This document shows, piece by piece, positions 107 to 37,661 of a stretch of 64,000 nucleotides of DNA; position 1 is the stretch's first letter, and every line of letters starts with the position of its first letter. This stretch comes from Gammaproteobacteria bacterium (GTDB lineage Bacteria; Pseudomonadota; Gammaproteobacteria; SZUA-152): positions 4,118-68,117 of the forward strand of contig DROS01000019.1 of NCBI GenBank assembly GCA_011321815.1, read 5' to 3'. A program made the position numbers and the translations under genes. A model generated the notes under the pieces. It ran no database searches, was not told the DNA's origin, and saw only the letters and a list, made by a program, of their open reading frames with translations.

Positions 107-1741
107 TTGAATGGCATGTTTTTACCAAGGATAATTTTTGTTGTCGGGGTAATGCTGTTTATCGCTGTACTGAACTACGTGCAGGCGGGAATGCTGGATT
201 CGATGGAGAAGGCGTTAATGCCGGGTGAACTTTCCGCAGCTCATGCCCGGTTTGAAAATAATTGCACAGATTGCCACAAATTATTCGGACAGGAACAACA
301 AAACCGCTTATGCCTGGATTGTCATGATCATAAAAATATCGCTGGAGATATTAAAAACGGAAGGGGATATCACGGGCGTATTCCTGATGTAAAAAACAAG
401 GAATGTCGTGTTTGTCATTCAGAACACAAAGGACGGCAGTATTCCATCGTGCTACTGGATAAACAGGCTTTTGACCATCGTTTAACCGATTTTCCCCTGC
501 GTGGACGACATGGTGATGCACCCTGTCAGGCTTGCCATAAAAACAATAAAAAAACCGGTAAAGCAAAACCTTATCACCAGGCGCCGAAACAATGTGTCAA
601 GTGTCACAAACCTGATGATGCGCATGATGGACGCCTGGGAAAACAGTGCGGTAGTTGCCATACACAAATGCGCTGGCAGAATTTTCGCTTTGATCATGCG
701 ACGACCAAGTTCAAGTTAAAAGGAAAACACAAAGGTGTGGAATGCCGTTTATGTCACCCGCAAGAACGTTACAGTGGTGTGCCCGGAAAATGTGTTGCCT
801 GTCACAAAGGTGATGATAAACACAAAGGGCGCTATGGTAAAAAATGTCAGGACTGTCACTCAGTATCTGGCTGGGGAAGCCAGAAATTTGATCACAACAA
901 GGATACGGACTATCCGCTGAAGGGGCGACACATGTCGGTGACCTGCCAGCAGTGCCATCGCAGCGAAGGCTTTAAAGTCTATGTGAAGGAAAACACGAAG
1001 AAGAAAAATAAAAAATCAACTACGGATTGTTATGCCTGTCACCGTTTACAGGACGAACACAAAGGGCAATACGGGCGTAAATGTCACGCTTGCCACACGG
1101 TGAAAGCCTGGAATAAATCTACGTTTGACCATAAAAAAACAGATTTCCCGCTGAAGGGAAAACATAAAAAAGTGGCCTGCGGTGATTGTCACCCGGGTGT
1201 GCTTTATGAAGAAAATTTAAAAACGGACTGTTTTTCCTGCCATCGACAGGACGATGTACATCATGAAAAACAGGGGAAAAAATGCCAGGAATGTCACAAT
1301 GAAGAAGGTTGGCGGCATAACGTTAATTTTGATCATGATTTGGTGAAATTCCCATTATTGGGTGCCCATGTAGCACTGGCATGCGAAGAGTGCCACGATT
1401 CCGGAAGTTTTAAGGACACCAAAGCATCGTGTTTAGCGTGTCATAAGGGCAATGATGTACACGAGCGCAGTCTGGGAGCGCAATGTGATGTGTGTCATTA
1501 CGTGGGCGACTGGAAGGCCTGGGAGTTTGATCATGATAAACAGACAGATTTTGAGCTGGAAGGTAAACACAAAGGCATTGTCTGTAAGGCCTGCCACCGG
1601 GAACCTGTGAAGAACGAGATGGATATGCCCAATGATTGTCAGGATTGCCATTTGCAGGATGACGCACATGACGGAGAGTTTGGGCGTCGCTGCCAGCGTT
1701 GCCACAATACGGAATCTTTCTCTGAAATAAATATGCGGTAA
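107..1741 (+). CDS. Secreted multihaem c-type cytochrome with 21 CXXCH motifs, built from repeated c7-like triads (FDH..CxxCH / CxxCH / DxHDGxxGxxCxxCH). It has an N-terminal signal-anchor helix. The true start may be the ATG at 116.
   Basis: I counted 21 CXXCH motifs in the translation. They fall into a periodic three-haem pattern with extra conserved His, like polymerised cytochrome c7. The N-terminus MFLPRIIFVVGVMLFIAVLNYVQA is hydrophobic. Coordinate 107 is a TTG and an ATG lies at 116. Confidence 0.85.
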   Translation: MNGMFLPRIIFVVGVMLFIAVLNYVQAGMLDSMEKALMPGELSAAHARFENNCTDCHKLFGQEQQNRLCLDCHDHKNIAGDIKNGRGYHGRIPDVKNKECRVCHSEHKGRQYSIVLLDKQAFDHRLTDFPLRGRHGDAPCQACHKNNKKTGKAKPYHQAPKQCVKCHKPDDAHDGRLGKQCGSCHTQMRWQNFRFDHATTKFKLKGKHKGVECRLCHPQERYSGVPGKCVACHKGDDKHKGRYGKKCQDCHSVSGWGSQKFDHNKDTDYPLKGRHMSVTCQQCHRSEGFKVYVKENTKKKNKKSTTDCYACHRLQDEHKGQYGRKCHACHTVKAWNKSTFDHKKTDFPLKGKHKKVACGDCHPGVLYEENLKTDCFSCHRQDDVHHEKQGKKCQECHNEEGWRHNVNFDHDLVKFPLLGAHVALACEECHDSGSFKDTKASCLACHKGNDVHERSLGAQCDVCHYVGDWKAWEFDHDKQTDFELEGKHKGIVCKACHREPVKNEMDMPNDCQDCHLQDDAHDGEFGRRCQRCHNTESFSEINMR

Positions 1742-1789: not shown

Positions 1790-4048
1790 ATGAAAATCAG
1801 GAATTGTTTAACACAGCATGTGTTGCTGCTGGTTACTTTGTGGTTGCTATTGCCTGCATTGAGCATGGCTGCGCCAAAACAGGATTTTGACCATTTTGAG
1901 ACGGGCTTTCCCTTGTCCGGCCAGCATCAGACGGTGCCTTGCGCCGCCTGTCACTTGCGTGGAGTCTTCAAGGGAACGCCATTGACCTGCAACGGTTGCC
2001 ATAATGGTTCCATTGCACCCGGCAAGCCGGATCGGCATATCGCCAACACAGAGACTTGTGATGATTGTCATACCATCTTTGCCTGGCAGGCTGCGGCTAT
2101 GGATCATTCGTCTGTGACAGGTTCATGTACGCAATGCCACAATACCCGTTTGTCTGCGCAGCATATTCAAACCCGTGCCCAGTGTGATGAATGTCATGGC
2201 ACAGTGGGTTGGTTGCCTGCGAGATTTACGCATGATGCTGTATCGAAAAATTGCAGCAATTGCCATAATGGGATAACAGCAAAGGGAAAATCCGCGAACC
2301 ACATTCAGACAGCGGAGCAGTGTGATGGCTGTCATAACACTGTGGCCTGGTTACCCGCCCGCTTTGATCACGGAAGTGCGACGGGTTCATGCAGTAGTTG
2401 CCATAATGGAACGACGGCGACCGGGAAACACAGTGCTCATGTGACAACTTCAGGCGAGTGCGAACTTTGCCATGCGACGACAGCCTGGTTGCCTGCAACC
2501 TTTAATCACAGCTCATTCAGTGGCGCCTGCAACAGCTGTCATAACGGCGTGACGGCTACCGGTAAATCCGGCCGTCATTTACAAACCACATCTGATTGTG
2601 TTGATTGCCACAGCACCAATGCCTGGTTACCGGCAAATTTCTCACATGATGGCATTACGGGAACATGCAGTTCTTGCCATGACGGTGGTATTACGTCGGG
2701 TAAATCAAGTAATCATATTCAAACCACTGGCGAATGCGACGTGTGTCACAGCACGAATGCCTGGTTACCCACCCGCTTTGATCACGGCAGTGCGACGGGT
2801 TCATGCAGTAGTTGCCACAATGGAACGACGGCGACCGGGAAACACAGTGCTCATGTGACGACTTCAGGCGAGTGTGAACTTTGCCACAGCACGAATGCCT
2901 GGTTACCCGCCCGTTTTGATCACGGCAGCGCGACGGGTTCATGCAGCAGTTGCCATAATGGAACGACGGCGACCGGGAAACACAGCGCCCATGTGACGAC
3001 TTCAGGCGAGTGTGAACTTTGCCACAGCACGAGTGCCTGGTTACCCGCCCGCTTTGATCACGGCAGTGCGACGGGTTCATGCAGTAGTTGCCATAATGGA
3101 ACGACGGCGACCGGGAAACACAGTGCTCATGTGACAACTTCAGGCGAGTGTGAACTTTGCCACACGACGACAGCCTGGTTGCCCGCAACTTTTGATCACA
3201 ACTCGTTCAATGGCGCCTGCAACAGCTGCCACAACGGTGTGACGGCTACCGGTAAATCCGGCCGTCATTTACAAACTACATCTGATTGTGTTGATTGCCA
3301 CAGCACCAATGCCTGGTTACCGGCAAATTTCTCACATGATGGTATTACCGGAAGGTGCAGCTCTTGTCATGATGGTGGTGTTGCGCTGGGCAAATCCGGC
3401 ACTCACATTCAAACCACTGGTGAGTGTGATGTCTGTCATGGTACCAATGCCTGGTTGCCTGCCCGCTTTGATCATGGCAGTGCGACAGGTTCATGCAGTA
3501 GTTGCCATAATGGAACGACGGCGACCGGGAAACACAATAACCATGTGACGACTTCCGGGGAATGTGGAGTTTGTCATACAACAACGGCGTGGTTGCCTGC
3601 AATCTTCGATCATGATTCATCAAGCGGCCTTTGTAACAGTTGCCACAATGGAGTGACGGCAACGGGCAAGGCCGATAATCATTTCATTTCATCCAGGCAA
3701 TGTGACGAATGCCATACTACACAGAGCTGGACATCGGTACGCTATAACCATGTGGCGATCGGCTACCCAGGTGGCCATAATGGTTTGTCATGCAATGGAT
3801 GTCACAAAGGAAACAGCGAATCTTCAGTCTGGGAAAATCCTGGCTACAAACCTGATTGTGCAGGTTGCCATGCGGATGACTGGGAAAGTGATGAACATAA
3901 AAAAACGAAAAATCCACGCACCATTTTTTATACCATCAGTGAATTGCGTGATTGTTCATCATCATGTCATGAGTACACGGACAACACGTTCACGACTATT
4001 AAAAAGAGACGTAACAGAGAACATAGCCCGAATGGCGGAGATTTTTAA
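1790..4048 (+). CDS. Secreted giant multihaem c-type cytochrome with about 29 CXXCH plus one CX3CH. It is made of about 14 tandem 46-aa di-haem modules. The signal peptide is MKIRNCLTQHVLLLVTLWLLLPALSMA.
   Basis: The ORF track starts at a TTG at 1754. An ATG at 1790 is preceded by AGGTGA and followed by a classic Sec signal peptide. The translation is a string of modules WLPxxF[DNS]H-x5-CxxCHNGxTAxGKxxxH[IV]xTxxxCxxCHxTxA. Confidence 0.85.
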   Translation: MKIRNCLTQHVLLLVTLWLLLPALSMAAPKQDFDHFETGFPLSGQHQTVPCAACHLRGVFKGTPLTCNGCHNGSIAPGKPDRHIANTETCDDCHTIFAWQAAAMDHSSVTGSCTQCHNTRLSAQHIQTRAQCDECHGTVGWLPARFTHDAVSKNCSNCHNGITAKGKSANHIQTAEQCDGCHNTVAWLPARFDHGSATGSCSSCHNGTTATGKHSAHVTTSGECELCHATTAWLPATFNHSSFSGACNSCHNGVTATGKSGRHLQTTSDCVDCHSTNAWLPANFSHDGITGTCSSCHDGGITSGKSSNHIQTTGECDVCHSTNAWLPTRFDHGSATGSCSSCHNGTTATGKHSAHVTTSGECELCHSTNAWLPARFDHGSATGSCSSCHNGTTATGKHSAHVTTSGECELCHSTSAWLPARFDHGSATGSCSSCHNGTTATGKHSAHVTTSGECELCHTTTAWLPATFDHNSFNGACNSCHNGVTATGKSGRHLQTTSDCVDCHSTNAWLPANFSHDGITGRCSSCHDGGVALGKSGTHIQTTGECDVCHGTNAWLPARFDHGSATGSCSSCHNGTTATGKHNNHVTTSGECGVCHTTTAWLPAIFDHDSSSGLCNSCHNGVTATGKADNHFISSRQCDECHTTQSWTSVRYNHVAIGYPGGHNGLSCNGCHKGNSESSVWENPGYKPDCAGCHADDWESDEHKKTKNPRTIFYTISELRDCSSSCHEYTDNTFTTIKKRRNREHSPNGGDF
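2348..3727. repeat. Intragenic tandem array of ten 138-bp units, each encoding one 46-aa di-haem module. There are three variants, A, B and C. Units at 2762-2899, 2900-3037 and 3038-3175 are near-identical. The 414-bp block A-B-C at 2348-2761 is duplicated at 3038-3451.
   Basis: Direct reading of the sequence. The string tggttacccgcccgctttgatcacggcagtgcgacgggttcatgcagtagttgccataatggaacgacggcgaccgggaaacacagtgctcatgtgac recurs with only a few substitutions. Confidence 0.8.
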
Positions 4049-4079: not shown

Positions 4080-6170
4080 ATGAGAGGTTTTCGGTTTTGG
4101 TGTCAGGTGATGGGAGTATACTTCGCAGTATCTTCCCAGGTCTGGGCATTGCCAAATCAATCACTGGAAAGTATTGAATATCTGACTCATCAAGGGATGG
4201 CTGCGATAGAAATTGGTTTTGCCCAACCAGTGATTTACATGTCGAATTTTCCGCTGGAATCTGGTGCAACGCTACAAATTTTTATCGGGCCGCGCACTGC
4301 TGTGGATGTCGATGTGGATAAGCTTCCTTATACCCAGGCGATGCGCGCACCAGATTCCGGTGAGATACCGCTGCGGCAAGTGACATTCCATATTAACGAA
4401 GCCGGTGAAACCTCCATTGTTGTGGATTTTAAGCGGGTGGTGAATTTTACGATATCGGCTGGTCGTCGTTTTAACACGTTGATGATTGTTTTTCCGGAAT
4501 TGAGAATCACGCAGGCGGTACCGTTGAAAAAAGCACGTACTGTGGAGATAGTTGACAGCAAAGCTTTCAGGTTGCTGGTGTCGGGGCGCAAGGCTCTCAA
4601 GCAGCATAAAAACAAAATGGCTATTCGTATTTTTACCGGGATGCTGGAATTGCCCGAAAGCCCGGAACGACAGGAGGCAATGGAATTGTTGGGAGTGGCA
4701 CGGGAACGCAACCAGCAAAAGGCACATGCCAGGGCCATGTATCAGGAATACCTGAAGCAATACCCAAAGAGTGAAGGCGCGGCACGGGTCAAACAGCGGT
4801 TACAGGATTTATTGCATGCACAGTTAAAACCCCGGGCGAAACTGAAACCCATCAAGAAATCAAAGGACAGAAAAACTACTTCACGTATCTATGGCAGCTT
4901 TGCCCAGTATTATTATCATGGTGAAAATAGCGTTGAAAATGCCGGTAGCTCGGTGGATCAATCCTTGTTATTGAATCAATTGTCTGTTAATTGGCGTATT
5001 CGTAATGCCGACTATGATATTCGCAACTTTGTTTACACCAACCAGAGTTATGACTTTTCCAGTGAGACAGGTAAGGCAGTGACTCTGGAGACGGCGTATA
5101 GTCAATTTAAAAACAGCCGCTGGGGTTTTTCGGGTCGTGCTGGTCGGCAAACCGGCTCCGGCGGTGGCGTGTTGGGTAAGTTTGACGGATTACGCGCCAG
5201 TTATGATGCTACACGAAGAATCGCTGTGAATGCTGTGGCGGGCTATCCTGTCAATATCAGTGACAAACGCAGTATTCAATCACAAAAACCTTTTTGGGGA
5301 ATCGGCTTTGAATGGGATGGTGAGGGCAAAGGTGTTGATATCCTACCTTATTATATCCAACAGAAGGTAGATGGCATTATTGACCGTGAGGCTATTGGTA
5401 GCGAATTCAGATTTTTTCATGAACAAGGGAATTTTTACGGACTTATTGACTATGATATTCATTATGCGGACCTGAATATTTATCTTTTTCGTGGCCAATA
5501 TAATTGGCGAAAAAATACGATTTTTAACCTGAATCTTGATTATCGAAACAGCCCTTTATTGTTTACCTCTCATGCCTTGATTGGGCGTACGGATGTGTCG
5601 AGCATTGGTGAGTTACTGAATGTGCATAGTGAACGCAGTATTAATGAATTAGCAGAAAGCCGTGTGGGTGATTCAAGTACATTTTCATTGGGCGTGAGCC
5701 ATACCTTAAGTACACGTTATCAACTTAATGCAGACCTGACATTTGCCAGACAGAATTTTATCATCGACGGTGTCACGCCGGGCGTTTTAATCAGTGAGAA
5801 TGACCAGCAAATTTATTTTTCCGGTCAGCTTATTGCCAACAAATGGTTTAATGATCGTGATACCAGTGTGCTGGGTATGCGTCTCTCGCAGACCGGTAGC
5901 TATGATGAACTTTCGTTATCCGCCTCTAACCGGTTACTGTTGAACAATAAATGGAAATTCGACACCCGAATGCGCGTTGATTTACGTCAAGGTAATTCAG
6001 GTGAAGATTTAACCAGATACCGTCCTTCAGTGAAATGGAATTTCCGTCACAATCAGACGATGTATTACGAAACGGAAATTGGTGTGGAATGGTGGCGTTA
6101 TGGTGGCGATTCCAATAATCCTGATTTTCGACGGTTGTTTGCTAACGTAGGTTATCGCTGGGATTTTTGA
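4080..6170 (+). CDS. Outer-membrane beta-barrel protein of 696 aa. The N-terminal ~250 aa form a periplasmic, partly helical TPR-like region. The C-terminal part is a large beta-barrel ending in the beta-signal ...NVGYRWDF. It is a candidate porin or translocon partner of the two cytochromes.
   Basis: The signal peptide is MRGFRFWCQVMGVYFAVSSQVWA. The C-terminal 450 aa are rich in alternating aromatic/hydrophilic dyads and in Asn, Tyr and Gly. The protein ends in a terminal Phe with an x-Y-x-W-x-F pattern. The gene lies immediately downstream of the cytochromes, 32 nt away. Confidence 0.6.
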   Translation: MRGFRFWCQVMGVYFAVSSQVWALPNQSLESIEYLTHQGMAAIEIGFAQPVIYMSNFPLESGATLQIFIGPRTAVDVDVDKLPYTQAMRAPDSGEIPLRQVTFHINEAGETSIVVDFKRVVNFTISAGRRFNTLMIVFPELRITQAVPLKKARTVEIVDSKAFRLLVSGRKALKQHKNKMAIRIFTGMLELPESPERQEAMELLGVARERNQQKAHARAMYQEYLKQYPKSEGAARVKQRLQDLLHAQLKPRAKLKPIKKSKDRKTTSRIYGSFAQYYYHGENSVENAGSSVDQSLLLNQLSVNWRIRNADYDIRNFVYTNQSYDFSSETGKAVTLETAYSQFKNSRWGFSGRAGRQTGSGGGVLGKFDGLRASYDATRRIAVNAVAGYPVNISDKRSIQSQKPFWGIGFEWDGEGKGVDILPYYIQQKVDGIIDREAIGSEFRFFHEQGNFYGLIDYDIHYADLNIYLFRGQYNWRKNTIFNLNLDYRNSPLLFTSHALIGRTDVSSIGELLNVHSERSINELAESRVGDSSTFSLGVSHTLSTRYQLNADLTFARQNFIIDGVTPGVLISENDQQIYFSGQLIANKWFNDRDTSVLGMRLSQTGSYDELSLSASNRLLLNNKWKFDTRMRVDLRQGNSGEDLTRYRPSVKWNFRHNQTMYYETEIGVEWWRYGGDSNNPDFRRLFANVGYRWDF

Positions 6171-8817: not shown

Positions 8818-8849
8818 GCCCCCGGCAATTGCCGGGGGCTTTTGTTTTT
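8818..8849. terminator. Rho-independent terminator with stem gcccccggc-aatt-gccgggggc followed by TTTTGTTTTT. It sits between the OMP gene and the convergent lysR-type gene.
   Basis: A perfect 9-bp stem and a T-run are visible in the sequence. Confidence 0.65.
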
Positions 8850-9729
8850 ATGGGCTGCTTTTATTCATCGACTGAAGCGTGTCAATCATCGCACTTGCCG
8901 CATTCGACAGGGTGCGCGCCTGATGATATACAACCCCCAGTTGACGGACCAGCTTTATCCCGCGTATTTTCAATGCAAGCAGTTCTCCGTTCAGCATGCT
9001 GCGTGGTAACACCGACCAGCCCAGCCCCACTCCTACCATCATTTTGATGGTTTCAAGATAATTTGTGGTCATGCCTGCGCCGAGTTTTCCTCCTGCCTGG
9101 ACAACACTGCGCTCCAGTAATTGCCGGGTGTAAGTGCCTGGTGAGGGCAGGATTGCCGGGTGTGCTGCGAGCTGTTGAAAACCGAGCCTGGATTTTTTGG
9201 CCAAGGGGTGCTCGCGGGCCACAACAATGTCCAGCGGGTCCGGCCAGATGAGTTCGCTTTTTAAGTCCGCAAGTGGTTCCAGGGGCAGGGTGACAATGCC
9301 CAATTCGAGATCACCCGTTTGTACCGCCCGGCAGGCCGCTTCGGAATCCATAAACTGCAAATCCAATGCCACGTCAGGGTAGGTCTTGCTGAACCGCCGA
9401 AGCACGGGCGGTAAACGATGCAGGCCAATATGGTGGCTGGTGCCAATACTCAGTTGCCCGGCTACTGTGCCAGTGAGATTGGAAATCAGCCGGCGACTGT
9501 CTTCGATTTCATGCAGGATAGCTCTGGCGCGCGGCAGTAATGCACGCCCCGCTTCGGTAAGACTGACGCGACGGGCAATACGGTCAAACAGTGCTGCGCC
9601 CAGCTCGGCCTCTAAAGTCGCCACCCGTTTGCTGACCGCAGGCTGGGTAAGATAGAGCTGCTCGGCGGCAAGCGAAAAAGACTTCAGTTCCGCAGCAACA
9701 ATGAAGGTGTGCAGGTTGGCAGTGTCCAT
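8848..9729 (-). CDS. LysR-family transcriptional regulator, divergent from leuC.
   Basis: The N-terminal HTH is LHTFIVAAELKSFSLAAEQLYLTQPAVSKRVATLE, followed by a LysR substrate-binding domain. The ORF track starts at 9747. The second Met at 9729 gives a canonical LysR N-terminus. Confidence 0.85.
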   Translation of the reverse strand: MDTANLHTFIVAAELKSFSLAAEQLYLTQPAVSKRVATLEAELGAALFDRIARRVSLTEAGRALLPRARAILHEIEDSRRLISNLTGTVAGQLSIGTSHHIGLHRLPPVLRRFSKTYPDVALDLQFMDSEAACRAVQTGDLELGIVTLPLEPLADLKSELIWPDPLDIVVAREHPLAKKSRLGFQQLAAHPAILPSPGTYTRQLLERSVVQAGGKLGAGMTTNYLETIKMMVGVGLGWSVLPRSMLNGELLALKIRGIKLVRQLGVVYHQARTLSNAASAMIDTLQSMNKSSP

Positions 9730-9745
9730 GGGAATAGTTTTATCC

Positions 9746-9760
9746 ATTCCTTTATGGAAT
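9746..9760. promoter_or_regulatory. Perfect palindrome ATTCC-TTTAT-GGAAT matching the T-N11-A pattern. It is a candidate LysR-type autoregulatory / leuC control site.
   Basis: It lies in the lysR-leuC divergent spacer just upstream of the lysR start. LysR boxes typically have the form T-N11-A. Confidence 0.35.
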
Positions 9761-13237: not shown

Positions 13238-13330
13238 TAAACGCAAAGGACGCTGAGACGCAAAGAACACAAAGTTTTTTGTTCTTTTTCTTTGCGCCCT
13301 CTGCGCCTTTGCGAACTTTGCGTTAAATAC
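13238..13330. repeat. Intergenic palindromic element, copy c (leuB-asd spacer). Its ends are TAAACGCAAAGGACGCTGAGACGCAAAG and CTTTGCGCCCTCTGCGCCTTTGCGAACTTTGCGTTAAATAC.
   Basis: Visible in the sequence. It shares termini with copies a and b. Confidence 0.6.
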
Positions 13331-13360
13331 TCAATATCAAAAAAAGCAGGTAATGGAAAA

Positions 13361-14473
13361 ATGAAAAAAGTCGGATTAATCGGTTGGCGCGGCATGGTGG
13401 GTTCAGTGCTCATGCAACGTATGCGCGATGAGAAAGATTTTGACCTCATCGAGCCGGTGTTTTTTACCACGTCACAAACCGGACAACCAGGCCCGGACAT
13501 CGGTAAAGATGTACCGTTATTAAAGGATGCAAAATCCATTAATGAGCTGCAAGCAATGGATGTCATCATTACCTGTCAGGGCGGCGGTTATACTGAAGAT
13601 ATCTATCCGCAGTTACGCAAGGCGGGGTGGGGGGGGTACTGGATTGATGCCGCTTCTACGCTGCGCATGAAAGATGATGCCATTATTGTGCTTGATCCGG
13701 TGAATCTCGATGTTATCAAAAACGGCCTGGCCAACGGCACTAAAACCTTTGTCGGTGGCAACTGCACTGTAAGCCTGATGTTAATGGCCATTGGCGGGCT
13801 GTTTGAAAATGATCTGGTGGAATGGATTTCACCCATGACTTATCAGGCGGCTTCTGGTGCTGGCGCGCAGAACATGCGGGAACTGATCCGGCAGATGGGT
13901 GCGATCAATGATTCGGTCAAAGACCTTAACGAAGACCCTGCTGCCGTAATACTGGACATCGACAAAACACTGGCCGGTTTTTTGCGTTCTGACAACTACC
14001 CCAAAGACAACTGGGGAGTGCCGTTGGCGGGCAGTCTGATCCCCTGGCTGGACTCCCCGCTGGACAGTGGTCAGACCCGCGAGGAATGGAAAGCCGAGGT
14101 GGAGACCAACAAAATTCTTGGCCGTACTGATAACGTCATTCCCGTCGACGGTATCTGTGTGCGTATTGGCGCCATGCGTTGCCACAGCCAGGCATTGACC
14201 ATCAAATTGAAGAAAGATGCACCACTGGATGAAATTTATCATATGCTGGCACAGGCAAACGATTGGGTGAAAGTCGTACCCAATGATCGTGAGGCCACGG
14301 TGAAAGATCTGACTCCTGCCGCCGTTACCGGTACGTTGACAGTACCCGTGGGGCGGTTGCGCAAACTCACCATGGGTAATGATTATCTATCTGCCTTTAC
14401 GGTGGGCGATCAGTTGTTATGGGGTGCAGCGGAACCTTTACGTCGTATGTTGCGGCTGTTGTTGGCAACATGA
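13361..14473 (+). CDS. asd: Aspartate-semialdehyde dehydrogenase.
   Basis: The N-terminus [21 protein letters not shown] matches Asd, and the protein is about 371 aa from the ATG at 13361. The ORF track starts earlier, inside the repeat element. Confidence 0.9.
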
Positions 14474-14536: not shown

Positions 14537-15571
14537 GTGAGTAAAACGTTTAATGTGGCTGTAGTGGGCGCAACCGGTCTGGTGGGTGAGGCCCTTGTAT
14601 CATTTCTGGAGGAACGTGATTTTCCTGTAGGTGATTTTTTTCCATTGGCAAGCATGCGTACAGCCGGGAAAAAGGTGGCGCTGGGCGGTAAGTATCACAC
14701 CGTGAAGGATGTGGCGGATTTTGATTTTTCACAAGCTGATATTGTCGTGTTTTGCGCGAGTGATGAGGTTTCTGCGGAATATGTACCGCGCGCTACTGCG
14801 GCGGGTTGTATGGTGGTTGATACCTCCGCACAGTTTGTGGATGACGATGATGTGCCGCTGGTGATTCCTGAAGTGAATCCACAGGCAATTACTGGTTATG
14901 TTCATCGTAAGGGGCGGCGCAATATTATTTCCAGTCCTGACAGTTCAACAATACAAATGCTGGTTGCTCTCAAACCCATTTATGATGTTGTTGGCATTGA
15001 GCGTATAAATGTGGTTAGTTATCAGGCAGTGACAGCATCAGGCAAATCCGGGATGGATGAACTTGCCAGCCAGACAATTGCCCTGTTGAATATGCAGGAC
15101 GCTAAACGTAAAATGTTCCCGCAGCAGATTGCCTTTAATGTTTTACCGCAAGTCACGGTTGCTGAAGAAAATGGTTACTTGTCCTGCGAAATGGAAATGC
15201 TGCGGGCAACGCAAAAAATTCTTGCTGATGGTGACATTTTTATCAACCCGACTACGGTGCAGGCCCCCGTGTTTTTCGGCCACTCCCAGGCAGTGCATGT
15301 GGAGACTGGCGCAAAACTGGGTGTAGACGAGGCGCGGGATCTGTTACGACAGGCCCCAGGGGTGGAGCTGCTGGATGATGATGAGCCCGGCAATTCGCCC
15401 ACGGCTGTCACACATGCGGCGGGTGAGGACGCAGTATTTGTAGGTCGTGTCCGTGAAGATATTTCTCATCCTTGTGGTTTAAATTTGTGGGTAGTTGCCG
15501 ATAATGTGCGCAAAGGGGCGGCGCTGAATTGTGTGCAAATCCTTGAGCTGTTGGTAAAAGAGGGCTTGTAA
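14537..15571 (+). CDS. usg: Asd paralogue, an aspartate-semialdehyde dehydrogenase-like protein of the USG-1 family.
   Basis: It has the NAD-binding N-terminus VAVVGATGLVGEALV and a GTG start. It sits in the asd - usg - fimV - truA position seen in pseudomonads. Confidence 0.75.
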   Translation: MSKTFNVAVVGATGLVGEALVSFLEERDFPVGDFFPLASMRTAGKKVALGGKYHTVKDVADFDFSQADIVVFCASDEVSAEYVPRATAAGCMVVDTSAQFVDDDDVPLVIPEVNPQAITGYVHRKGRRNIISSPDSSTIQMLVALKPIYDVVGIERINVVSYQAVTASGKSGMDELASQTIALLNMQDAKRKMFPQQIAFNVLPQVTVAEENGYLSCEMEMLRATQKILADGDIFINPTTVQAPVFFGHSQAVHVETGAKLGVDEARDLLRQAPGVELLDDDEPGNSPTAVTHAAGEDAVFVGRVREDISHPCGLNLWVVADNVRKGAALNCVQILELLVKEGL

Positions 15572-25009: not shown

Positions 25010-27136
25010 ATGACTAAAATAACTGATAACAGACAATCCCCTACCAATATGGATGCCCACAAAAAAACCTCAGATTGTGATTCGTTGTTGAAACTCTGGA
25101 ATTTGCGCATTCTGACCCGGTTGAATGTATTCAACCGGTTTTTTGATCGTTATGGTGGTCTGCATGACCCGGAAACGATGCATGTTTTGGGTTTGTCAGC
25201 GTTTTTACATGACGAAAATGTTGGTAAAAAAGACATATTTTCCAATCTGTCCAATACATTAAAATCACTGGAAAGTGATACGCTGACCTCTCCCCAGGAT
25301 GTTTTTTCCGTCAATATTTCAGTTCTTCAAAAATCGTTAAATCTGACACAGTGTGAGATCGATATATTGCGGTTTGTCATCGTATCGGGTTCGTCTGCGG
25401 GGTTTAATATGGTGGTCGAGACGCTTGGGGAAATGAGCAATGAACAAATCAGGAACAGCCTGTCGATAATCCTGAATGTTCCCCGCAATGAGATTGATAA
25501 TGCCATGCGCACCAATGGTACATTGATATCTTCGGGCTTGTTGCGCATCAATACCAGTGGCCACTATATGCATTCATTGCAGCAGTGCTTTGATGTCCCA
25601 CACAGTATCAAATATGCCTTGACTCAGGAGCAGAATAATCCCGGGGCAATATTACAATGTTTTTTTAAAATGGTGGATCAGTCGCACCTGTCAATTGAAG
25701 ACTTCCCTCACTTAACAGCCGATATTGATCTATTGACATGCTATTTACAGTCAGCTGAAAAGAAAAACATTCAGGGGATTAACGTATTGATATACGGTGA
25801 ACCCGGCACAGGTAAAACCGAGCTGGTGAAAACCTTAAGCCAGTACTGCGGGTTTGAGTTATACGAAATCACCATGCAGGATATGGAAGGTAATCCCATT
25901 GATGGAAAAGACCGTTTTGCTGCTTATCAGCTGACTCAGAAAATGTTGGCCAATAAAGAAAAATCAGCCATTTTGTTTGATGAAATAGAAGATGCTTTTC
26001 CTGATGTGAATTTCAGCCCGTTTGGTCATGTGACACGCCCTGATTTCAAAAAAGCCTGGGTGCATCAATTGTTGGAGGAAAATTCAATCCCTGCATTCTG
26101 GTTGTGTAACAGTGTGGTGCAATTGGATGATTCGGTGTTACGTCGTTTTGATTTTGTTCTGAATTTACGTTCTCCCACACGTAATATCCGCCGGCGTATT
26201 CTCGACAAATACCTCGGTCACCTGAATTTGAGTGAAGCATGGTTGGCGCAAATGGCGGAACATGAGCATTTGGTGCCGGCACATGCTGAGAGCGCCGCTA
26301 AAATTGCAGCTCATCTGAATGATGGAAACACAAAGGCGCTGGAGAAAAACCTGGAAAGGATTATTGGTAATAAACTACAAGTTCTGGGATTATCCCGTAA
26401 GCCCCGCACGGTTATCAGTCGTGAAACCCGCTATAGCCTTGAGTACCTGAATCCAGACCAGGATCTGGAGGCGTTAACCAGGGGGTTGCAACAAAATCAC
26501 CAGGCACGTATTTGTCTGTATGGTGCACCAGGTACCGGAAAAACAGCTTTTGCACATTATGTTGCGGAACAGCTGGACAAACCCTTGCTTAAAAAACAGG
26601 CTTCGGACATTCTCAGCAAATGGGTGGGGGAAGCAGAACAAAATATCGCTGCCATGTTTGATGAGGCTGAGGCTGACGACATGGTGTTGCTTGTTGATGA
26701 AGTGGATAGTTTTCTGCTGGATCGCGGTTCCTCTCAGAACTCATGGGAGATCACCCAGGTTAATGAATTATTGGTTCAAATGGAAAGCTTCAATGGCGTG
26801 TTTATTGCCTCTACAAATTTACTGAATCTTGTGGATGCTGCATCGTTACGCCGTTTCGATCTGAAGATAAAATTTGACTGCATGAAGCCCCAGCAGGCGT
26901 GGGCGCTGTTTCTGCAAATATTGGAAGAGCATGGCTGTACCGTTGAGGATGAAATGAAGCACTGGAAAACAGCGCTGGCGCGGTTCGATAATCTTACGCC
27001 TGGGGATTTTGCGACAGTCGTGCGCCAGTCCCGAAGCCTGAATAAAGCGATTCACCCGCGTTATTTATTGAATGCGCTGGAAAAGGAATGCAGGGCCAAG
27101 CCGGGCGCCGGAAAATCTATCGGGTTTATGGGTTGA
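25010..27136 (+). CDS. Tandem AAA+ ATPase of 708 aa with two classical AAA modules (GEPGTGKT...ILFDEIED...RRFD, then GAPGTGKT...LLVDEVD...STN...RRFD). An N-terminal domain of ~240 aa has unknown function.
   Basis: Walker A, Walker B, sensor-1 and RRFD motifs can be read twice in the translation. The gene lies in an AT-rich insertion between accD and folC. Confidence 0.75.
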   Translation: MTKITDNRQSPTNMDAHKKTSDCDSLLKLWNLRILTRLNVFNRFFDRYGGLHDPETMHVLGLSAFLHDENVGKKDIFSNLSNTLKSLESDTLTSPQDVFSVNISVLQKSLNLTQCEIDILRFVIVSGSSAGFNMVVETLGEMSNEQIRNSLSIILNVPRNEIDNAMRTNGTLISSGLLRINTSGHYMHSLQQCFDVPHSIKYALTQEQNNPGAILQCFFKMVDQSHLSIEDFPHLTADIDLLTCYLQSAEKKNIQGINVLIYGEPGTGKTELVKTLSQYCGFELYEITMQDMEGNPIDGKDRFAAYQLTQKMLANKEKSAILFDEIEDAFPDVNFSPFGHVTRPDFKKAWVHQLLEENSIPAFWLCNSVVQLDDSVLRRFDFVLNLRSPTRNIRRRILDKYLGHLNLSEAWLAQMAEHEHLVPAHAESAAKIAAHLNDGNTKALEKNLERIIGNKLQVLGLSRKPRTVISRETRYSLEYLNPDQDLEALTRGLQQNHQARICLYGAPGTGKTAFAHYVAEQLDKPLLKKQASDILSKWVGEAEQNIAAMFDEAEADDMVLLVDEVDSFLLDRGSSQNSWEITQVNELLVQMESFNGVFIASTNLLNLVDAASLRRFDLKIKFDCMKPQQAWALFLQILEEHGCTVEDEMKHWKTALARFDNLTPGDFATVVRQSRSLNKAIHPRYLLNALEKECRAKPGAGKSIGFMG

Positions 27137-32630: not shown

Positions 32631-33851
32631 CTAATGCGTAGTAATGCGTGATTTGATTGCCTGCGCCATATCTGTATTGCCAATCTCTTTGTACAGTGTA
32701 GCGAGTTCAGTTAAAACGATATCTAATACAGGCTGTGTTTCACTTTTTCCATCATCGAGTATTTCGGCGGCTTTTTTATACAAGGGCAAAGCCTGCGCAA
32801 AAAGCGCGATTTTCCGCTGTGTGGTATCTGCCAGGGCGGCAGAATTATTATTGGTTGGTATGATATTGGACTCGAAAGATGTCTGATCCTGCTCTTCGAT
32901 ACGTGCCTGGGCGTGATAAATATTGGCCAGGGTATACATCAGCAATGCCAATTGCGGGTCTGATGAGCCCAGTATATGTTGCGCAATATTCAAGGCTTCT
33001 TCATAGGCATGGCTGGCAGGGCTGTATTCACCTTGTTCGAGATAGCTTGTGCCCAGACTGATGAGTGTCTGGGCAACCTCTTCATGTTGGACGCCAAAAA
33101 CAGATTTTTTGAAAACAAGCATACGTTGCAGGATGTTTATGGCTTTGTTGTGTTTTCCTTGTGCACGGTAAATGCCACTCAGATTGCTGAGTGCATTGCC
33201 GACATAAGGATGTGTAGGCCCCACACTTGCCGACCATAAGCTGATTGCCTGCTGGTAAAAAGTTGCTGCCTGTTCATATTTATGTTGGCTTTCGTACAGC
33301 ACCGCCAGATTGTAAGTTGATTGTGCAATTGCGGGATCATCTGCATGGAAGGCATTTTTGCGAATATTCAAGGCCTGTTGATGATACTTTTCAGATAGCT
33401 CGGGGCGTTGTAATTCAAAATAAACATTGCCGAGATTTGTCATGATCACCGCAAGATCGGGGTGATTTTGGCTGAGTTGCTCTTCAAGTATACGCAATGC
33501 TTCCTGTAAACGGTCTTCCGCTTTGTGCAGGTGTCCTAATGTTTGGTTGATAATGCCGAGTTTTAATAATGCATCAGCAGTATTTACATCATTTGGGCCA
33601 AAGTTCTTGTTGGCAATATCGTGAGCACGCTGGGCGGCAAAAAGCGCATTCTGGTAATCACCTTCTTCATAATAACGGATGAAATAGCTGGTCAGGTCGA
33701 TCCAAATGGTTTCAGCCAGCTCTGTTGTTTCATGGAAAGAACGAATGTTTGTTTCTTGTTCTGTTGTTGAATTAAGTGTCGGGTTGACAGAAGCAAAGAG
33801 AATGCCTGGTGCAAGCAGAAAAAAAATAAAATAAAATGTACACTGTTTCAT
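32631..33851 (-). CDS. Secreted tetratricopeptide-repeat protein.
   Basis: The signal peptide is MKQCTFYFIFFLLAPGILFASV. Repeated TPR units follow (A..Y..A..Y..G..). Confidence 0.7.
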   Translation of the reverse strand: MKQCTFYFIFFLLAPGILFASVNPTLNSTTEQETNIRSFHETTELAETIWIDLTSYFIRYYEEGDYQNALFAAQRAHDIANKNFGPNDVNTADALLKLGIINQTLGHLHKAEDRLQEALRILEEQLSQNHPDLAVIMTNLGNVYFELQRPELSEKYHQQALNIRKNAFHADDPAIAQSTYNLAVLYESQHKYEQAATFYQQAISLWSASVGPTHPYVGNALSNLSGIYRAQGKHNKAINILQRMLVFKKSVFGVQHEEVAQTLISLGTSYLEQGEYSPASHAYEEALNIAQHILGSSDPQLALLMYTLANIYHAQARIEEQDQTSFESNIIPTNNNSAALADTTQRKIALFAQALPLYKKAAEILDDGKSETQPVLDIVLTELATLYKEIGNTDMAQAIKSRITTH

Positions 33852-34301
33852 CCGCAGGTGAATGAGAGCCGGGCGTGCATATTTTTCCCAAGGGTTATAC
33901 ATTTTACTGTGCCTTTGTATCCCGGGTATAACATGTTTCGTGATTGTTAATCCGGTCAGTTTGAACGATGCCGTAAAAATGCATCGCTTATCCTGCATAT
34001 CGGCCAACGCAAGGAGCGCTTTAGCACAGCCTCTATGGCGAATGGTTGAGAGAGCGCATTAACTTTTTGATAAGGAACGTGCACGTTTCTAATACACATC
34101 ATTTCGCCTCGCCATGAAGAAAATATGGTGCACACTTATAACCTCAATCCCAAACGCTGCGGGTATATGTGGCCACTTTTAAAGCGGGAAATTATTTTTT
34201 CTGTTTATCAACAGGATAGGATGGCTATTCAGCAGGTGACAAAAATCAGGCAGGCATCTGTGTTTTGAGGTTCAATGTTCTGCGGTAGATTACGAGGTCG
34301 T

Positions 34302-37300
34302 TTATTGCGGCTTACCCGTTTCAGTGGATATTTTTTGAAGTTTGGCAAGGCTGGTTTCTGTGCGCAGCACGAGACCGTTGGCATTCTGTTGTTTGGCAAT
34401 GGCCAGGGATTCATTGAAATATTGTTCTGCAAGGCTGTGATTGTCAGCGCCGTTTTCCATGGCAAAATCACCCTTGATACGCAGTAGCTCCGCAGTAAAA
34501 AACCCCTCGCCAGTAAAAGCCGTTTCGCGCAGCGCAGACTCGATAGTCAGACGGGCTTTATCGGTTTTTCCTGCATCACGCAAAAGCTCTGCCAGAAGGG
34601 CCTGAAAATAAGAGCGGGCGAGTCGGTTACCGGATTTTTCGTAATCGCGCAGCGCTTGTTGAAACCGTTCACAAATACTGTCGGCCGGTTGTTCTGTTGA
34701 TTCCGCCCAAGCCTTCAGCATACGGCCTGTCGCTGCCCAGAATGAAAAACCATAGGTTTCACTCAGTGCTATTTGTGCATCAGCATAGCGGTAAGTCGCT
34801 TTATGGTCACCACAAAGCTGGGACAGGGTACCCATGAAATGCAGGGCATAGGCCTGACTGAATGGGTGTGCAAGGCGTTTGGCCAAATCCAGCGCGGCCT
34901 GGCCGCGCGTCAGTGCCTGGTCTGTTTTCCCAAGCAACCATAAAACGCATGCAGCATTGGCAAGAGAAGCCACCTGTGCATTCTGGCTATAGGCCACCAG
35001 TGTTGCCTGTGGGTGAGCCTGCCCGGTTTGCGGTTCGATGTGACGTTCAAGATTTTCCAATGCCTCGGAAAAATTACCTTTCCAAAAAAGCGTGGTGCCT
35101 ATGGCGCGTTTTGCTTCCAGTAAAAACTCCGGAATGTTGGATTGTGCAGCATATTGCTGTAGCTCATCGGCAAGCTTGTGTGCTTTTTCCAGCTCTGCGC
35201 GGACAATATAAAATTCCCACAAGCCACATAATACGGGAAACACAATACTGGTGTCCGTGATGTTTTGGCACAGGCTGTAAGCACGGGCATAGGCTTTTTC
35301 CACCTCGGGTGCGGCATAGCCTTTGCTCATCATGCTGGCCAGCCCCAGGGTGGTTTGCAAGGCCAGCTCGTGCCTATTTAACCCGGGTGATTCGGGCATT
35401 TTTTTAATCAGGGCGAGGCCCTTTTTGAGATGTTCGATGGCTTCAATATTGGCAGAGTGTTGAATCGCGGAATTGCCTGCGGATAACCAGTAATACAATG
35501 CATCTCCATTGTTTCCGGCTTCAGTATAATGATGGGCAAGAATCTCCGGGTTATCGGTAACAAGCTGTGGGAATTTTTCCTTGATAAGTGTGGAAATACG
35601 TTGGTGGTATTTTTGACGGGTACGCTTTAATAATGATTGATAAGCGGCTTCCCGTACCAGGGCATGCTGAAAGCGGTAATGTGCTTTGGGTGGCTTGCCG
35701 TTCTGGACAAATAATTCGGCATTGATAAGCCGGCTCATACTGGATTGCAGGTTGGGCTCACTTTGCAAAGCAGCGGCGAGCAATAGTTCGTAGGTGAATT
35801 CACGTCCCAGTGTGGCGCTTAATTGTGCCAGCTCTTTGTCATCACCGAGGTTGTCCAGGCGTGACATGAGCGAATCCTGTAGTGTGCTGGGGATTTCCAG
35901 TTGGGACATATGGTGTCCAAGCTCAAAATGATCCTCTTTTTCCACCAGCAGCGAAGACCGTAGCACGGCATTGGTCAGTTCCTCGACAAAAAAGGGAATG
36001 CCGTCTGTTTTGTTGGTGATTTCGGCAAACACTTCCAAGGGGAGCGTTTTCCCCCGGCATAGCTGCCTGATCATACTGCCTGATTGTTTTTGGGTAAGGC
36101 GATTGAGCGTAATCTGTGTCAGGCAGGTGCGATTTTTCCAGGGGGGAGCGAAGTCGTTGCGGAAGGTGATAAGGGTAAAAATGTTGCTTAGCCCAGGCTG
36201 ATCAACGAGTAATGACAACAGCTCAATAGTGGAAGGGTCTATCCATTGCAAATCCTCCACGACCAGCAACACAAAACGTTGTTGGGCGACAGCCTGTAAA
36301 ATATCAATGAGCACATCAAAGGTTTGCTGCTTTTTTTGCTGCGGAGTGGAGTTTGTTCCGGCAGCGTCGGCAATTGTTTTTCCTGGAAGGGAAATTGATA
36401 ACAGTTCAGCTAAAACAGGGGTAACTGTTTTGGGTTCCATACCCAGAGTAGCGATGGTTTTTTCGATACGCGAAATCTGTTTTTGCGGGGGATCATCTTC
36501 GGTCAGGCCGATAATGCGCCTTGCCATGTCCATAATGGGATAAAGAAAGCTGTTTTTATAGTAGAGGGCGCCATAGCAATCCAGAAAAAGACAATTTTCA
36601 TTTTCCACTTTTTCGCAAACCATCTGCACCATGCGTGTTTTTCCCAGTCCGGGTTCACCGCTGAGCAGAACAACCTGCCCAACCCCTTTGCGTGCCTGAT
36701 TGAGTCTTTCTATTAACAGACCGGTTTCCTGATCCCGTCCGATAAGCATGGCATGGGCAGGGCGTTTGGTTTTGATAAATCGGTTTTTGTTGCCACGGAT
36801 CTGTTGTACGTGAAAAAGGTTGAAAGGGTGGGAGAAGCCTTTCAACATGTGGGTACCCAGTGTTTGACATTCAAAACGCTGACCTAATAACTGATGTGTG
36901 CTGCCACTGATCACCACCGTGTTTTCACTGGCGTAGCCCTGAAGTCGTGCAGCAATATTGGGCGTTTCGCCCAAGGCCATTGAACGTGTGTCGCCACCGC
37001 CGATTTCACCGATAACCACCAGGCCGGTGTGAATGCCAATACGGACGGCAAGTTGTATGTCACCGCTTTGTTGTGTGGAGTAAACCTGTTTCGGGACATG
37101 TTTGACCATTTCCAGCGCGGCGAAGGTGGCGCGCTGTGCATCGTCTTCATGTGCGTGGGGGTAACCAAAATAAACCAGTATCCCATCACCGAGGTATTGC
37201 GCAACATAACCACCATAATCATTGACAATGTCATTGCAGGTGTTGCGGTAGTCGCGCATGATATCGCGCAGTTCTTCCGGGTCAATGCGCTCAGAAAGCG

Positions 37301-37562
37301 CAGAGGAATCGACGATGTCGCAAAACAATACGGTGAGTTGGCGACGTTCTGCATCTTGCTGCCTGAGTGTCTGTGTTGATGTAGTGTGATGATGGTCAGT
37401 CTTTTGTGTTTTGCTCAGGCGGGTGGCACATTGTCCACAGAACTCGAAATCAAATGGATTGCTAAAGCTGCAATTGGGACAAATGGTATTCAGCGGCGTG
37501 GCGCACTGCCCACAAAAGTGCATACCCTCTGGATTATTGAACCCACATTTTTCGCAGAGCAT
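34302..37562 (-). CDS. Multidomain signalling protein. It has an N-terminal double zinc ribbon, a class III adenylate/guanylate cyclase domain, a STAND/NB-ARC-like AAA ATPase and C-terminal TPR repeats.
   Basis: The zinc ribbon reads CEKCGFNNPEGMHFCGQC...CPNCSF...CGQC. The cyclase motifs are LTVLFCDIVDSSALSE and RIGIHTGLVVIGEIG. The P-loop is LLSGEPGLGKTRM. A long TPR region follows. An internal ATG at 37562 has an AGGAAA RBS. Confidence 0.8.
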   Translation of the reverse strand: MLCEKCGFNNPEGMHFCGQCATPLNTICPNCSFSNPFDFEFCGQCATRLSKTQKTDHHHTTSTQTLRQQDAERRQLTVLFCDIVDSSALSERIDPEELRDIMRDYRNTCNDIVNDYGGYVAQYLGDGILVYFGYPHAHEDDAQRATFAALEMVKHVPKQVYSTQQSGDIQLAVRIGIHTGLVVIGEIGGGDTRSMALGETPNIAARLQGYASENTVVISGSTHQLLGQRFECQTLGTHMLKGFSHPFNLFHVQQIRGNKNRFIKTKRPAHAMLIGRDQETGLLIERLNQARKGVGQVVLLSGEPGLGKTRMVQMVCEKVENENCLFLDCYGALYYKNSFLYPIMDMARRIIGLTEDDPPQKQISRIEKTIATLGMEPKTVTPVLAELLSISLPGKTIADAAGTNSTPQQKKQQTFDVLIDILQAVAQQRFVLLVVEDLQWIDPSTIELLSLLVDQPGLSNIFTLITFRNDFAPPWKNRTCLTQITLNRLTQKQSGSMIRQLCRGKTLPLEVFAEITNKTDGIPFFVEELTNAVLRSSLLVEKEDHFELGHHMSQLEIPSTLQDSLMSRLDNLGDDKELAQLSATLGREFTYELLLAAALQSEPNLQSSMSRLINAELFVQNGKPPKAHYRFQHALVREAAYQSLLKRTRQKYHQRISTLIKEKFPQLVTDNPEILAHHYTEAGNNGDALYYWLSAGNSAIQHSANIEAIEHLKKGLALIKKMPESPGLNRHELALQTTLGLASMMSKGYAAPEVEKAYARAYSLCQNITDTSIVFPVLCGLWEFYIVRAELEKAHKLADELQQYAAQSNIPEFLLEAKRAIGTTLFWKGNFSEALENLERHIEPQTGQAHPQATLVAYSQNAQVASLANAACVLWLLGKTDQALTRGQAALDLAKRLAHPFSQAYALHFMGTLSQLCGDHKATYRYADAQIALSETYGFSFWAATGRMLKAWAESTEQPADSICERFQQALRDYEKSGNRLARSYFQALLAELLRDAGKTDKARLTIESALRETAFTGEGFFTAELLRIKGDFAMENGADNHSLAEQYFNESLAIAKQQNANGLVLRTETSLAKLQKISTETGKPQ

Positions 37563-37661
37563 GGCAGAATTTTCCTGGTTTGCCGGTATATGCGGAAGGA
37601 GGATACCCATCCCCTCTGTGTTCAGCAAGGCGAGTGGATAAAGAATAAAACAGGAGAAAAC

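Follow-up and report, generated by a model that had tools for sequence, protein, structure and literature searches.

This work concerns a stretch of 64,000 nucleotides (nt) from the forward strand of contig DROS01000019.1 (positions 4,118 to 68,117; assembly GCA_011321815.1), hereafter the window, and in particular a forward-strand gene near its start (1790..4048), which encodes a large multihaem cytochrome c of 752 amino acids (aa) and contains an array of near-identical in-frame DNA repeats. The cytochrome has 29 CXXCH motifs, corresponding to 25.9 aa per haem. Its start codon was taken to be the ATG at 1790, which is preceded by a Shine-Dalgarno-like AAGGTGA and agrees with the start chosen by gene callers on related contigs, the raw open reading frame (ORF) having begun at a TTG. 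The product carries a Sec-type signal peptide ending at SMA/AP, and it matched the Pfam model Cytochrome_C7 (PF14522) over nine stretches at 116 bits, above the cut-off of 24.8.

The repeat array and its gene cluster

The identity matrix and the unit translations resolved positions 2210..3727 (+) into eleven in-frame units of 138 nt, or 46 aa, with two haem sites each. They follow one another in the order X-A1-B1-C1-A2-A3-A4-B2-C2-A5-B3, with starts on the forward strand at 2210 (X), 2348 (A1), 2486 (B1), 2624 (C1), 2762 (A2), 2900 (A3), 3038 (A4), 3176 (B2), 3314 (C2), 3452 (A5) and 3590 (B3). The pattern of the unit is W-L-P-x-x-F-x-H-x6-CxxCH-x10-H-x6-CxxCH-x4, so that each unit contains two CXXCH motifs and two additional conserved histidines and is made of two 23-aa segments with one haem site each; the spacing of the CXXCH motifs is exactly 23 aa across the entire array, both in the window gene and in its orthologues. 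The additional histidines would fit the need of bis-His ligated haems. Tandem Repeats Finder reported an array of 6.1 copies with a 138-nt period over 2345-3186, which scored 853, and another period of 276 nt over 2747-3321, and the non-repeat tail of the gene is only 25-33% identical to any unit.

An earlier reading made from the letters of the window alone (the sequence-only reading) had pointed to three near-identical 138-bp units at 2762-3175, inside the cytochrome gene. These are the tandem A-type units A2, A3 and A4 (2762..3175, +), which indeed share 93-95% DNA identity (7-10 pairwise differences in 138 nt) and are part of the larger array of eleven. A1 (2348-2485) and A4 (3038-3175) are 97% identical, with 4 mismatches; as a chance control, the codons were shuffled in five copies of the gene, whose best in-frame pairs of 138-nt windows matched at 59-61 of 138 positions, compared with the 134 of 138 observed.

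The same reading had described a duplicated 414-bp A-B-C block. The match was recovered, since 2348-2761 aligns with 3038-3451 without gaps at 90.3% identity (374/414), but it is not uniform: 2348-2669 is 94.4% identical to 3038-3359 (304/322), while 2670-2761 is 76% identical to 3360-3451 (70/92), with the drop at about 2670. The recently copied or converted tract (2348..2669, +) thus comprises A1, B1 and the first third of C1, with exact repeats of 86 nt, the longest in the gene, and 65 nt inside it, and its partner (3038..3359, +) comprises A4, B2 and the first third of C2. Divergence at third codon positions is 6.5% between A1 and A4, 15% between B1 and B2, and 39% between C1 and C2. Together with the fall from 94% to 76%, these values rule out a simple duplication of an ABC block; the 414-bp block is a mosaic, in which a recent A-B tract is joined to an older C unit.

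The cytochrome gene belongs to a set of four genes on one strand, separated by gaps of 31-48 nt, which encode an inner-membrane protein, a 21-haem cytochrome, the 29-haem cytochrome and a beta-barrel protein, in an order that is identical in contigs L006 and L010-L028. The inner-membrane protein (300 aa) is encoded immediately before the first position of the window, and its sequence was taken from contig L001 (5129-6031), which is identical to the window; its motifs SGVMG, WLSVH-x13-H and WRHAH-x13-H correspond to one SGxxG and two W-x3-H-x13-H motifs. The upstream multihaem cytochrome c (152..1741, +; 529 aa, 21 CXXCH) is in the position of the periplasmic multihaem cytochrome (MHC), is an exact match to HHI92241.1 ('cytochrome C') and matched Cytochrome_C7 at 94.7 bits. 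Its 21 motifs were counted in the longer reading 107..1741, whose extra N-terminal residues are cysteine-free. The length of this protein varies among close relatives (517-547 aa within one 90%-identity cluster), the 529 aa in the window strain against 526 aa in L006 pointing to a small in-frame insertion or deletion, and its gene has weaker internal repeats of its own (family D3, at 819, 1056 and 1257). The fourth gene (4080..6170, +) encodes a predicted outer-membrane beta-barrel protein of 696 aa, for which AlphaFold2 gave a mean predicted local distance difference test (pLDDT) score of 86.5, with the barrel blocks mostly above 90. The model has an N-terminal beta domain, TPR helices (about 161-247) and a barrel of about 22 strands (267-695), the protein ends in ...GYRWDF with a final Phe, Foldseek matched the model to porins, ushers and AlgE in the PDB at E of about 1e-10, and there were weak Pfam TPR matches.

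The available text of He et al. 2017 (PMC5566968) defines a putative porin-cytochrome cluster, PCC3, by component features of this kind: an inner-membrane protein of about 300 aa that carries two WX3HX13H motifs and one SGXXG motif, a periplasmic MHC with a median of 21 haem motifs (21-27 reported), a large MHC with 22-39 aa per haem (median 26), and an outer-membrane beta-barrel ('porin'). In the same text, the PCC3 cytochromes are built of repeats with a haem site in each, and their haem numbers vary greatly among genomes. In the available text of Hoover et al. 2023 (PMC10734462), the large PCC3 cytochrome of Gallionellaceae has 10-35 haems, for which longer reach or charge storage was suggested; according to the same portions of both papers, haem numbers reach 85 outside Gallionellaceae and the hosts include hydrothermal-vent Gammaproteobacteria. 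The cluster described here resembles PCC3 of He et al. 2017 in its inner-membrane protein of about 300 aa with both types of motif, its 21-haem cytochrome, its haem-dense large cytochrome and its barrel, and also in the number of residues per haem, which is next to the published median, and in the low-complexity repeats with a haem site each. It differs in its host, which is an uncultured vent gammaproteobacterial lineage, and in the N-terminal beta domain and TPR region that are added to the barrel protein. Judged by gene content and motifs, the gene 1790..4048 is the predicted large multihaem cytochrome of a PCC3-type cluster.

Three additional units in the lineage of the window

An exact look-up of the 752-aa cytochrome returned no entry in the protein collection, and relatives were therefore reached via the non-repetitive neighbour genes. 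A comparison of module number among orthologues, which the sequence-only reading had proposed, gave a series of syntenic genes that differ in whole-unit steps: 378 aa and 13 CXXCH in L010, whose barrel protein is 40% identical; 526 aa and 19 CXXCH in L025/L026; 614 aa and 23 CXXCH in L011-L021 (eleven contigs, three lineages); 669 aa and 25 CXXCH in L023/L024; and 752 aa and 29 CXXCH in the window, L001 and L006/L007. Throughout this series conservation is found in the first 140 residues and in the C-terminal tail, and the difference is the number of 46-aa units, the 752 and 614 aa forms being exactly 3 x 46 aa apart. The three 23-haem lineages, which are 85-96% identical among themselves and have 84-87% nucleotide identity to the window in the flanks, each have 8 units in the order X-B0-C0-A-B-C-A-B. 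Scans of Joint Genome Institute (JGI) metagenome contigs with the barrel protein and with a degenerate 42-nt A-unit pattern found nothing, and a scan of genome contigs with the barrel protein found a single distant locus, L010. A homologue search with the whole protein was dominated by longer, repeat-rich, paralogue-like proteins of 35-49% identity and was of no use for orthology.

A further orthologue comes from a lineage that shares 73% identity with the window in the barrel protein (L027, 4633-6000, and the same in L028; one JGI contig and one Logan contig of identical sequence). Here the cytochrome stops early (...WLPTTP*) after 15 CXXCH, a remnant of the otherwise conserved C-terminus (...RKHRINGGGF) is present in another frame, and a gap of 135 nt precedes the barrel gene. 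This gene looks like the product of an internal deletion and a frameshift, by which units and most of the tail would have been lost.

The A1-A4 units of the window are 92-97% identical to one another and 79-87% identical to any outgroup A unit. Since they are closer to one another also at third codon positions (76-93% identity, compared with 57-76% to the orthologous A units of the sister lineages), the expansion is lineage-specific, and the recent intragenic expansion proposed by the sequence-only reading is upheld, with 11 units here against 8 in the three sister lineages. A counterpart of B0 was sought among the window units, and none was similar. C1 is an old unit and probably the counterpart of C0. 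Third-codon-position divergence is 6.5-24% among A1-A4 and 33-37% between A1-A4 and A5, compared with 1.4-4.7% for the strain pair of the window lineage and 24-38% between the window and the 23-haem lineages. From these values it follows that both the additional A units and the A1-B1 copy are, in origin or by homogenisation, younger than the divergence from the 23-haem lineages and mostly older than that of the strains.

Gene conversion between A units is visible in the comparison of strains. A1 of strain L006 has four private variants that are missing from A1 of the window, which instead matches A4 over 86 nt, and the differences between the window and L006 are distributed unevenly over the units (8 in A1, 6 in A3, and 1 each in A2 and A4). 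The copies are also under purifying selection: over the gene, the strains differ by 36 synonymous and 10 non-synonymous changes, and the codon differences are 6 synonymous and 2 non-synonymous both between A2 and A3 and between A3 and A4. The 165-aa ORF on the opposite strand (2691..3188, -), which had been regarded as an artefact of the periodicity, is not a gene. Its frame is stop-free in every A unit, the flanking stops being those in C1 (2693) and B2 (3209), which makes it a by-product of the run of A units, and the substitutions between the window and L006 in 2691-3188 are 10 synonymous and 1 non-synonymous in the sense frame, compared with 1 and 10 in the antisense frame.

The simplest history that would account for these comparisons begins with an ancestor, shared with the sister lineages, that would have had 8 units (X-B0-C0-A-B-C-A-B) and 23 haems. 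Misaligned homologous recombination between units, which is the presumed mechanism, could then have put a fresh A-B copy in the place of B0 and inserted two extra A units before the old A, resulting in 11 units and 29 haems, three units and six haems more than before. Gene conversion among the A units would go on erasing or spreading variants, and with all copies in frame and under purifying selection, the product would be a functional, longer chain of bis-His haems. We give a probability of about 0.8 to this reading as a whole, that is, a modular haem wire of a PCC3-type cluster with a lineage-specific gain of three units by recombination, subsequent conversion and a functional longer chain.

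Copy number in the assemblies and alternative explanations

Arrays of this kind are prone to error in assembly, and the expectation of the sequence-only reading that this region would be difficult was confirmed: contigs L002, L005, L008 and L009 start inside A-type units, scaffold L003 has a gap of 100 N inside A4, and the contig L004, from a metagenome-assembled genome (MAG), is one unit short. It could therefore be proposed that the tandem A units are themselves an assembly artefact, either a spurious duplication or a collapse that hides further copies, the more so as L001 does not differ from the window and one set of reads may underlie both. We consider this very improbable. The two resolved strains (window/L001 and L006/L007), which are about 98% identical, have the same 11-unit layout, and L006/L007 come from an independent sample, strain and assembly, in which unit-specific variants are kept by position, A2 and A4 each being a single base away from their window counterparts. 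Because two samples and strains give this layout with position-conserved variants, it is not an accident of assembly. The sequence-only reading had also suggested that the true copy number may be higher than shown, and no positive evidence for this was obtained; L001 bears a MEGAHIT-style 'k127' label, and since the longest exact repeat of 86 nt is below k = 127, a collapse of non-identical copies in the window is unlikely. Even less credible is the explanation that the units are old and that protein-level constraint on haem-binding modules has kept them alike. The CXXCH motifs, the distal histidines and the WLP anchors are indeed nearly invariant across the family, but A1-A4 are as similar at third positions as elsewhere, above the values for the sister-lineage A units, and the sister lineages simply do not have the three units.

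A more serious alternative, which we nevertheless regard as unlikely, is that the number of units is polymorphic within populations at present, with 27- and 29-haem alleles occurring together, so that the gene would be a contingency-type locus adjusting the reach of the conduit over short times. The observation that could support it is contig L004, which has 10 units and lacks exactly 138 nt (window 2896-3033), and in which a hybrid unit has the marker of A3 at position 36 and a 3' end of the A4 type, as expected for the product of unequal crossing-over. Furthermore, L003, which is of the same strain, breaks at that position, as could be caused by a mixed population, and gene conversion between units is evidently active. 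A reading of L004 as evidence for strain polymorphism is weakened by the comparison of L003, L004 and L005, which showed 0 differences over about 3.7 kb of comparable sequence and are probably from one population. The switch point in L004 is inside a 53-nt tract that is identical in A3 and A4 and that can be shortcut by a short-k assembly graph. Because the three contigs are identical elsewhere and L003, which holds A2, A3 and both ends of A4 (at least three tandem A units, and at least 11 units in total), is gapped at the same spot, the only 10-unit variant is most simply read as an assembly shortcut, and it is probably a collapse. In addition, both resolved strains have 11 units, and the sister lineages, which are 4-15% diverged, all hold 8, which suggests that the number is usually stable. 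The prediction of the sequence-only reading that the haem number would vary between strains found no support in the two resolved strains. The stronger claim, a turnover of modules on the time scale of populations in which one sample holds both 27- and 29-haem alleles, appears slightly less likely still.

Another feature of the assemblies is that the Logan contigs L002, L005 and L008 all begin 81-83 nt before the end of A5. On our assumption about Logan's k, these breaks would fall where a k = 31 unitig resumes past the 49 nt over which A4 and A5 are exactly alike. This reproducible break truncates the gene in Logan-derived data.

Several points weigh against the preferred reading of a PCC3-type haem wire with a recent gain of three units. 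The copy number is read from assemblies, in which perfectly identical extra copies could escape notice, and the recombination events were put in order by parsimony, with C1 resembling the outgroup units C0 and Cc about equally. The 29-haem protein occupies the 'extracellular MHC' position of the cluster; its haem ligation, its wire-like shape and its extracellular site are predicted, and the one targeting feature seen in its sequence is the Sec-type signal peptide. AlphaFold2 modelling of the 752-aa haem-free cytochrome with a 40-sequence alignment gave an unusable model (mean pLDDT 52.6, predicted TM-score 0.26), and a phmmer search of the cytochrome against PDB sequences found nothing at E<=0.001. 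As for the assignment to PCC3, whose founding clusters are those of Sideroxydans lithotrophicus ES-1 and Leptothrix cholodnii SP-6, no named Sideroxydans or Leptothrix proteins were among the top 120 matches of the homologue search with the inner-membrane protein, and the matches of the cytochrome family include Pelomonas, Burkholderiaceae, Rhodocyclales and Kaarinaea proteins, none of those listed being named from ES-1 or SP-6 and most being unnamed metagenomic proteins.

Related proteins, surroundings and significance of the gain

The 120 best family matches are mostly proteins of 800-1300 aa with 25-49 haems, and 18 of them hold internal 46-aa windows with at least 42 of 46 residues identical. 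For example, the protein from the isolate genome of Pelomonas sp. APW6 (P0065) has a 153-aa period with 96% identity over 305 aa, and another family member has a 160-aa period with 98% identity over 410 aa. Long-period, near-perfect repeats are listed for P0065, P0068 and P0001 (Kaarinaea lacus). The differing sizes of the super-units in family members point to independent recent expansions across the family, and recent intragenic expansion thus appears to be a habit of this group of cytochromes.

It has been reported that extracellular multihaem cytochromes are least conserved in size and haem number, and for GSU1996 a growth by the duplication and concatenation of c7 modules has been proposed (PMC11492766). 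The cytochrome of the window resembles the GSU1996-type Geobacter nanowire in being a long multihaem chain thought to have grown from a small haem module, and Cytochrome_C7 matches both. However, its unit is a 46-aa di-haem module (2 x 23 aa), whereas that of GSU1996 is a tri-haem c7 domain of about 75 aa, its genomic context is a porin cluster, and its score with TIGR04257 (nanowire_3heme) is 26.7 bits, below the cut-off of 40. With MtrCAB and MtoAB it shares the concept of a haem chain through an outer-membrane barrel to an outer cytochrome; the Pfam model of MtrC/MtrF domain II/IV scored 48.4 bits (cut-off 30), and the DmsE/MtrA decahaem model (TIGR03508) scored 80.5 bits, below its cut-off of 192.2. 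In contrast to those systems, there are 29 and 21 haems here instead of 10, there is no lipoprotein signal, and the barrel is of another family.

At the DNA level, parallels are offered by the streptococcal alpha C protein and the staphylococcal Aap/SasG proteins, whose genes contain in-frame repeats of more than 100 nt, from which whole units are gained or lost by homologous recombination, thereby changing the length of the exposed protein; the copy number differs among isolates and during infection. The near-identical in-frame repeats of more than 100 nt are common to these systems and the cytochrome gene, but the repeat of the window is a redox module and not a spacer, and both resolved strains are equal in copy number.

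The window is otherwise an ordinary chromosomal stretch from a hydrothermal-vent metagenome gammaproteobacterium, in which leuCDB, asd, purF, dxs and parE/parC are present, the neighbouring proteins match HHI922xx entries (a third-party annotation MAG record, on a contig of 85.7 kb), and an Rfam search of the window found no RNA family. A gene for a LysR-family regulator (8848-9747, -) is situated downstream of the cluster, as it is in most of the fetched syntenic loci that reach far enough; its product scored 103.6 bits with NF041036 ('multiheme cytochrome-associated LysR family transcriptional regulator'), below the cut-off of 210, and the gene abuts leuC and could equally belong with the leu genes. 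Two aspartate-semialdehyde dehydrogenase genes are located side by side (13292-14473 and 14537-15571, +), one of the gamma-proteobacterial type (TIGR01745, 617 bits) and one of the asd_B type (TIGR01296, 343 bits). A 708-aa AAA ATPase is encoded at 25010-27136 (+), for which the best NCBIfam model was the anti-phage ATPase IteA at 119.8 bits, far under the cut-off of 510. At 34302-37682 (-) there is a gene for a 1126-aa protein with a double zinc ribbon, domains of the adenylate/guanylate cyclase and AAA_16 ATPase types, and TPR repeats, and this gene is adjoined by that of a 458-aa TPR_12-rich protein (32631-34007, -), an arrangement with a STAND-like signalling architecture.

Variable haem number and internal repeats have already been published for PCC3, and to that extent, as far as the available text of those papers goes, the locus is fairly ordinary. 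In those portions, the PCC3 papers report haem counts and protein repeats and contain no near-identical DNA repeats, unit-by-unit comparison of orthologues or gene conversion, and they do not document how the haem number changes. What is added here is a module-by-module history, in which a single 46-aa di-haem module is the unit of change, and the locus is a resolved example of such a change. Each extra unit would bring two haems and with them a longer conductive path or more storage of charge; the 'tunable wire length' of the sequence-only reading is a reasonable suggestion, and one already made in the PCC3 literature. If modules did turn over on the scale of populations, the length or charge capacity of the conduit would be heritable and rapidly adjustable, and the gene would be a locus of the contingency type whose product transfers electrons, in place of an adhesin or antigen. 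It should also be considered that short-read assemblies break or collapse in these genes, and that a haem count based on a MAG may be off by whole modules. In iron-oxidising and other lithotrophic bacteria, PCC3 cytochromes are candidates for conducting electrons over long ranges, and the series from 13 to 29 haems in a conserved operon is a natural set for asking whether haem number sets the distance of conduction or the storage of charge.

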